A DNA stretch of 64,000 nucleotides, taken from assembly GCA_964016885.1 (NCBI GenBank), contig OZ024742.1, positions 340,814,001-340,878,000 of the forward strand, read 5' to 3'. The notes beneath the pieces were generated by a model. It saw only the letters and a list, made by a program, of their open reading frames with translations. It was not told the origin of the DNA and did not search any database. The stretch comes from Eledone cirrhosa (Eukaryota). Made by a program: the position numbers and the translations under genes. This document shows, one piece after another, positions 40,957 through 41,164 of this stretch (within the stretch, counting starts at the first letter, position 1; each line of letters starts with the position of its first letter).

Positions 40957-41164
40957 AACGAAGGAAATGTGGTAAGGAACCAGGTGGACCATAACGCACC
41001 AAAGTACTCAATACTTAGGGTAGTAGAGTGGGTAATAGGAACGAGTAGGACCCTGACGGCTGAGCTCAAGCCATTTCGACGGCTAATTCTGGACCTAATT
41101 CTGGGTCCAGAATTAGCCGTCGAAACGGGTTGAGCTCAGCCGTCGGGGTCCTACTCGTTCCTAT
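40957..41164. repeat. Palindromic half-hammerhead element with tail, within (TA)n
   Basis: Palindrome 41034-41164 plus ~77-nt single-copy tail. Confidence 0.9.

Follow-up and report, generated by a model that had tools for sequence, protein, structure and literature searches.

Short palindromes in (TA)n of the Eledone cirrhosa genome: probable head-to-head double insertions of the 3' end of a Penelope-like element

Palindromes in the window and their parent element

The window analyzed here is a stretch of 64,000 nucleotides (nt) of Eledone cirrhosa DNA (GenBank assembly GCA_964016885.1, contig OZ024742.1, positions 340,814,001 to 340,878,000, forward strand), and it contains several copies of a short palindrome that lies between (TA)n runs and is made of the 3' end of a recently active Penelope-like element (PLE). 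Each arm carries GAAA, stem III, GUC, and a strand of stem I of a hammerhead ribozyme, and one arm has a tail that we measured at 77 nt, which is the layout described in an earlier, sequence-only reading of this DNA. Where coordinates are given (Table 1), the tailed arm at 41035..41094 extends further, through the 3' strand of stem II into the 3' side of loop II. The palindromes that had been placed at 13773, 41034, 47487, and 55896 were all found, at 13773-13900, 41035-41164, 47487-47602, and 55895-56014, with 37/55 (a decayed copy), 52/55, 55/55, and 51/55 outer bases complementary, respectively, and their four centers all differ from one another. Three of the partial copies listed earlier (11950, 14110, and 62870) are arms, at 11954-12012, 14110-14169, and 62851-62915, but the fourth, at 58125, matches in only 14/16 bases (E 5.5) and lies inside an unrelated PLE-type frame.

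Searches were made in the genome to which the window belongs (G000, 3.0 Gb). A DNA search for the palindrome gave 1,897 candidates, and the 40 that were scored are all near full length, with 93-100% identity. Exact matches number 34,004 for a 29-mer of the arm, 0 for its reversed control, and 2,081 for the arm of a sister subfamily. The two outer ends are the same in all 30 genomic copies examined, and every copy lies between TA runs (30/30), which would hide any target-site duplication.

A copy with longer arms (L031) supplied the next upstream bases, and the 28-mer derived from them led to 2,675 matches that include many divergent pairs and one tandem array (L086). The array has a 3,542-bp unit, its copies are 99.8-100% alike, and it carries an intact frame of 717 amino acids. 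This single frame encodes a reverse transcriptase (RT) followed by a C-terminal GIY-YIG nuclease, with the motifs RWR (position 37), DKT (117), YRDD (348), CNCPDRSIC (CxCx5C, 572), AYIG (605), CNLC (CxxC, 670), and CKH (CxH, 698). A Pfam search of the frame matched no family; 2,015 of 7,997 scored homologs reached E 1e-20 or better, and the best, from a bivalve, carries Pfam GIY-YIG. The same motif set and (TA)n targets are given for Hydra-clade PLEs (Craig et al. 2021, PMC8557442), and we place the parent there. Judged by motifs and target, its identity as a Hydra-clade PLE is near certain, and a Naiad identity was ruled out by the C-terminal position of the nuclease. The insertions also show PLE architecture, with partial tandems, an inverted 5'-truncated copy, and a tail at one end. 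In terms of the parent, the window arm corresponds to the final 60 nt of the pseudo-long terminal repeat (pLTR) and the tail to the 77 nt that follow. Inside the element array, a 55-bp piece of the parent frame is repeated about 65 times in tandem (L087:3671-7242).

The 3' end of the parent folds as a type I hammerhead, with stem I, seven unpaired bases, stem II with a long loop, GAAA, stem III, and GUC, an assignment that rests on topology and motifs, as the folding energy is no better than that of shuffled sequences (z 0.22). The proposal that the arm is the 3' half of a PLE hammerhead in a pLTR was borne out by a parent with the full fold. CUGANGA is indeed absent from the palindromes, but it is absent from the parent too, which has UUGAGAA, a U3-A8 core. 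A UUGANAA core was present in 80/88 long arms and G8 in 0/88 (overlapping loci may count an arm twice), and a long sister-subfamily copy (L294) has TTGACAA. Replacement of C3-G8 by U3-A8 has already been described in the Cercyon elements of Schistosoma (PMC4209133). Because of this core, CUGANGA searches miss the parent hammerhead: the search proposed earlier, for CUGANGA upstream of the arm, gave 25 matches in the genome, none of them an intact parent, and 0 once stem I (gacccc) was added. One of the loci considered as a parent (L042) was rejected, as its CTGATGA belongs to an unrelated inverted element.

Table 1. Palindromes, solo arms, and flanks in the window, with their relation to the parent unit
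Feature	Position	Strand	Basis or detail
(TA)n target, left flank	40882..40957	none	sequence as read
77-nt PLE tail, parent unit 3466-3542	40958..41034	-	blastn to parent unit; fixed end in other copies
Tailed arm, parent unit 3406-3465	41035..41094	-	blastn to parent unit and fold
Junction, 10-nt insertion	41095..41104	none	duplicates arm sequence (templated)
Tailless arm, parent unit 3406-3465	41105..41164	+	blastn to parent unit
(TA)n target, right flank	41165..41270	none	sequence as read
Second full copy	47487..47678	+	tailless arm 47487-47546 (-), tailed arm 47548-47678 (+)
Sister-subfamily copy, stem III loop CGGAGCTC, tail at right	55895..56077	+	blastn to parent unit
Old decayed copy, tail remnant at left	13738..13900	-	blastn to parent unit
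Solo tailless arm, begins at the common stop (unit 3406)	14110..14169	+	blastn to parent unit
Solo tailless arm of an older subfamily	11954..12012	+	blastn to parent unit
Sister-subfamily arm with tail stub and decayed partner	62851..62915	-	blastn to parent unit

The inner stop and the two arms

The arms have a sharp inner stop 17-22 nt upstream of GAAA. In an unselected sample, consisting of the first 100 matches of the arm 29-mer, the end lies no more than 24 nt upstream of GAAA in 85 arms and at 56 and 79 nt in two, while 13 run on for at least 150 nt; short arms outnumber long ones by about 6 to 1. Exact matches drop in the same place, from 34,004 for the arm 29-mer to 2,675 for the 28-mer just upstream. 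In three sequencing runs of unknown kind, which may be the source of the assembly rather than independent of it, summed depth falls about 20-fold at the stop, and loose ends are seen at the two outer ends. Starts are most frequent at unit 3405 (70 of 398 arms in a biased set), which is the A at -18, and next most frequent at unit 3406 (37 arms); in the copy at 41035-41164, both arms stop at -17. The A at -18 sits in TTAGTC or TCAGTC, within loop II of the hammerhead. The sister subfamily has a different loop and the same -18 stop, in TTAGTT, and 2/30 of its loci are clearly long; a first guess at its upstream sequence found one genomic match only. All three hexamers fit TYAGTY, which is the initiator consensus (PMC6483594).

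Arms that start at -18 without the preceding T have 7,866 matches. Among the 100 of these that were listed, we examined 97 arms, of which 13 are long copies of a variant with C and 45 are explained by the partner arm or the flank. The remaining 39 have an extra base before the -18 A, which is G in 22, A in 7, and C in 10 (G against A, p 0.004 for even odds). We rejected the extra G as a parental variant, as the parent sequence with G in this place has just 5 matches genome-wide. Such a G marks capped 5' ends in L1 insertions (PMC11702581), and no constant upstream exon sequence was seen before it in the arms examined. From these sequence features, we infer that the stop corresponds to a capped transcription start at the initiator TYAGTY inside loop II of the upstream pLTR, in which case the parent messenger RNA (mRNA) would begin with only the 3' half of the hammerhead. 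The pLTR of Penelope is reported to hold an internal, LINE-like promoter (LINE, long interspersed nuclear element; PMC2377424).

Two-ended priming would also be compatible with a stop of another kind: the RT might stall on structure in loop II of a longer transcript, or that transcript might be processed there. In favor of this, folding predicts a weak hairpin in loop II whose 3' strand lies at the stop, the sequence there resembles a splice acceptor, and 13/14 long copies bearing the open reading frame (ORF) read through the site. However, an RT on its way to this hairpin would already have come through stem I and stem III, which are stronger, as well as the 3' strand of stem II, and the sister subfamily keeps both the -18 stop and the initiator-like motif in a different loop. 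In other families, the stop falls 18-87 nt upstream of a hammerhead that is complete, and the extra G and the lack of constant exon sequence before that G also speak against a stall or processing site. We regard this explanation as unlikely.

Hammerhead cleavage was considered as a further cause of the stop and rejected, as only 1/80 partner arms ends at the cleavage site. By our reading of 100 listed junctions (of 756) with a short partner, about 10 end there, of which 6 are explained by microhomology, 2 are ambiguous, and 2 are clean, compared with 7 at another microhomology spot; among these 100, cleavage-site ends show no excess over microhomology hot spots. At one locus (L328), both pieces start exactly at the predicted cleavage site, and at another (L326), one piece does, which gives a hint of occasional cleavage. 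The earlier suggestion that the arms serve as a substrate half for trans-cleavage finds only a hint in the same two loci.

We compared the two arms in 103 short palindromes, of which 30 were chosen for their likeness to the window copy and the others came from several searches. Exactly one arm carries the tail in 101 of them. In these 101, the tailless arm reaches further by at least 3 nt in 29, the tailed arm in 23, and the two are within 2 nt of each other in 49. In 18 long insertions, which were selected as divergent pairs, the longer side is the tailless one in 9 and the tailed one in 6; 2 have sides of about equal length, and 1 lacks a tail on both sides. The junctions lack a spacer in 53 of the 101 short palindromes and have insertions in 48, several of them copied from an arm. 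The 93 distinct centers among the 101 agree with the earlier view that centers are made anew with each insertion, but not with its statement that every copy differs; identical centers recur across different subfamilies, which gives no support to a self-propagating hairpin with a fixed center. A comparison of arm identity within and between copies, also proposed earlier, showed that a diagnostic 11-nt stretch is identical between the arms in 74/101 palindromes, compared with 21% between copies, and one arm pair (L179) is clearly discordant. Half of 100 long arms lie less than 12 kb from another long arm in divergent orientation, a count that includes members of tandems; for comparison, about 15% of arms are long. 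The unselected 100 arms comprise 78 short arms with a partner of the same family, 14 long arms, and 8 others. Head-to-head joins with other families were found at four loci (L033, L040, L043, and L256).

These arm lengths argue against fold-back synthesis, because no copy of a tailed cDNA can be longer than that cDNA, and a tail cannot be copied from a cDNA that lacks one. The sequence-only reading had envisaged a snap-back at stem II, and the junction that this predicts has one genomic match, a solo arm after TATATA. The arms stop on the 3' side of loop II, short of the 5' strand of stem II, and the tailless arm is the longer one in 29/101 short and 9/18 long insertions. Fixed outer ends, terminal inverted repeats, and TA flanks would suit a DNA transposon of the miniature inverted-repeat transposable element (MITE) type, the outcome that the same reading had named as fatal to its own proposal. 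The partner of the palindromes is instead an RT-encoding element with a full hammerhead, of which the arms are the 3' end, at lengths from tens of bases to kilobases and with 93 centers among 101 copies. Both a snap-back at stem II and a MITE are extremely improbable.

A different form of fold-back, self-priming, has been proposed for PLE palindromes (PMC3846280): after run-off, a single cDNA would fold back by way of a few added bases and serve as its own template. On this view, unequal arms would result from later breakage at the center. The arms do nearly always share a subfamily, even down to private variants (L015), and some junctions have G on both arms with spacers of 1-3 nt. Palindrome centers are also unstable, as this account needs. 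However, self-priming provides no reason for the copy to stop exactly at unit 3465, would require kilobase one-sided deletions in young copies with a longer tailless arm (L089 and L100), and leaves the 53/101 junctions without a spacer unaccounted for. Nor can it yield the mixed-family joins, the discordant pair L179, solo arms at the same stop, or the restarts behind the ORF leader that are described below, and we consider it quite unlikely.

Proposed two-ended priming, run-off, and strand transfer

Taken together, we think that the palindrome is probably a short head-to-head double insertion of the parent 3' end into (TA)n, produced by two-ended priming and run-off at the 5' end of the RNA, a route that would account for the inverted repeats of these elements. 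The transcript would start at the capped initiator in loop II of the upstream pLTR, and each end of a DNA break would prime one reverse transcription reaction, at two start sites 77 nt apart near the RNA 5' end. In the copy at 41035-41164, we would place one RT start site at the outer end of the tail (40958..41034) and the second at the outer end of the tailless arm (41105..41164). The sites would lie about 61 and 138 nt from the cap, and both cDNAs, of these lengths, would run off the capped 5' end in the manner of strong-stop DNA, usually from one RNA or one source locus. Host end-joining may then link the cDNA 3' ends head to head, and small deletions, microhomology, or templated insertions during joining would give each copy its own center. 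Similar steps have been observed in vitro for the PLE protein of PAc Poseidon (Frangieh et al. 2024, PMC11167929), which cuts and extends both strands at AT-rich DNA, uses two internal start sites that bound the tail, does not need hammerhead cleavage, and is predicted to form a dimer. In a word search of the available text, inverted insertions, run-off products, and strand transfer were not discussed for that system.

Further evidence comes from the junction between tail and ORF, which has 320 matches, and the 30 loci examined represent 25 insertions. In 7 of the 25, a first piece breaks off 65-821 nt inside the ORF leader, and a new arm begins after it at unit 3402-3408. Two others have a new arm that begins at the cleavage site, and 2 have other forms. 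The restarts behind the ORF leader, which are rare, imply that the template passed the tail into the ORF and that the RT started within it, stopped at the same place, and jumped. These products have no inverted partner adjoining the stop. At one locus (L305:1375-2029), a 257-nt unit made of the stop, arm, tail, and 116 nt of the ORF leader is repeated head to tail, as would be expected from repeated template jumps.

Long copies and partial tandems might arise by a homology-driven move of the run-off cDNA to the 3' copy of the pLTR, comparable to strong-stop transfer in retroviruses, or, by an alternative route, from RT starts at that copy or on read-through RNA. In retroviruses, minus-strand strong-stop DNA results from internal priming near the RNA 5' end and run-off, and is then transferred. 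The process envisaged here differs in that priming would be by genomic DNA and integration would be direct.

Several observations weigh against this interpretation. Of 14 long ORF-bearing insertions, none begins at the stop, 13 run on upstream without a break, and 1 begins within the tail. The simple expectation that full-length copies start where transcription does is thus contradicted, and a homology-guided transfer to the 3' pLTR or a read-through RNA is needed for them. Joins between families were 0/100 in the unselected arms, and three of the four known came from a search that selected them. The symmetric spread of arm lengths would also be expected if palindromes broke later at their centers. 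As for the extra base, the 10 unexplained C are partly parental, three insertions contributed both arms to the count of extra G, and the G could be a non-templated addition at any run-off end instead of a trace of the cap.

It is also conceivable, and compatible with two-ended priming and run-off, that the short copies are themselves transcribed from their retained initiator and serve as non-autonomous templates whose center is rebuilt each time. Both start sites lie in the tailed arm, which in some copies also retains the entire initiator; short arms prevail over long ones by about 6 to 1, and such templates would explain why transfer fails in short arms and is constant in long ones. On the other hand, the jump products that reveal downstream sequence carry the ORF leader of the parent, and four of the five main short subfamilies are also seen as long copies. 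A contribution of this kind seems rather unlikely to us, if somewhat less so than a stall or self-priming.

More broadly, and as a tentative proposal that we rate below even chances, PLEs may replicate through a strong-stop step, in which an RT dimer begins at two positions close to the capped 5' end of a single RNA and makes two short cDNAs, one on each end of the break, whose further extension requires a homology-guided jump to the 3' pLTR. The palindromes would then be failed jumps, the restarts behind the ORF leader misdirected ones, and the long inverted arms and partial tandems successful ones, with a promoter inside the hammerhead in the parent family. If this is true, the half ribozyme at the start of the mRNA could be cut by the other half at its 3' end. 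Because the genome contains an intact source element and young products of this one family in numbers well above ten thousand, junction statistics can reveal the mechanism, and a test is feasible with one protein and one short RNA.

Known systems and other elements

The Hydra-clade PLEs with an endonuclease (EN+; PMC8557442) are among the closest known systems, and share with the parent a single frame, a C-terminal GIY-YIG-type nuclease, DKT, an RW-basic motif, the CxCx5C linker, CxxC, and CxH, as well as (TA)n targets, an inverted 5'-truncated copy, and a tail at one end. They differ in that their units are generally under 3 kb compared with 3.5 kb in the parent, their RWK is RWR here, their tails are 30-40 nt compared with 77, and their hammerheads are canonical throughout Hydra, whereas the parent core is U3-A8; most insertions here are also only about 200 bp long. 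Palindromes of the Penelope pLTR in Adineta vaga (Arkhipova et al. 2013, PMC3846280) likewise have inverted pLTRs, a palindromic junction, an optional tail, and an initiator-like motif in the pLTR. They have been read as self-priming on an antisense template, while arm lengths, mixed joins, and restarts here point to two separately primed cDNAs. Minimal PLE hammerheads, including those of Cercyon in Schistosoma (Cervera and de la Pena 2014, PMC4209133), share the type I fold in a pLTR, U3-A8 covariation, and motif pairs 100-700 bp apart on opposite strands; the elements described here have a stem III of 5-6 bp closed by a palindromic loop and a long loop II, and the majority of their copies keep the 3' half only. 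Non-LTR retrozymes (bioRxiv 10.64898/2026.07.22.740005) are also short non-coding PLE derivatives with hammerhead sequence, but they are head-to-tail with complete hammerheads rather than head-to-head halves. In L1 twin priming (PMC11702581), a second RT likewise works on the other end of the break, but its two parts do not overlap, whereas here both copy the same stretch.

The head-to-head architecture (PMC8557442, PMC3846280, and PMC4209133) and the U3-A8 core are thus already known, and the origin of tandem and inverted PLE structures has been named as unresolved (PMC8557442). Self-priming on an antisense template is the published account of PLE palindromes (PMC3846280), and we did not find a run-off or strong-stop account in a literature search that was mostly without subscription papers and supplements. 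For annotation, two traps follow from these elements, as the copies resemble MITEs and the U3-A8 core hides the hammerhead from searches for CUGANGA.

Other families in this genome form short head-to-head products that contain complete canonical hammerheads. In 15 of 56 rows (12 insertions), they have their own inversion center 18-87 nt upstream of stem I; 4 further rows were dropped as neighboring or unrelated repeats. As these families keep complete hammerheads, the half-hammerhead appearance of the palindromes is an accident of where the stop lies in the parent family. The arms of other families seem by eye, and uncounted, to begin at an initiator-like CCAGTT or CACTAYCC (L040, L043, L074, L109, L152, L256, and the 23120 and 27760 regions of the window). 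A head-to-head join of two hammerhead families, with CTGAAGA on the minus strand and CTGATGA on the plus strand, lies between TA runs at 19935-20310 of the window.

Complete canonical type I hammerheads of other families occur in the window at 11706 (+), 20036 (-), 20210 (+), 21736 (+), 23234 (+), 27849 (+), and 62304 (-), and Rfam at its gathering threshold reported nothing in the window, including these seven. Other Hydra-type frames survive as relics at 4679-6718, 18665-19436, 25730-26728, 37798-38557, and 42530-43165, with 26-54% identity to the parent protein. By eye, frames at 51348-53356 (-), 15262-15822 (-), and 57823-58278 (+) resemble other PLE clades, with DKG and a GIY-YIG-like C-terminal end, and broken LINE-like frames with endonuclease and RT features lie at 1619-3955 (+) and 9039-11337 (-).
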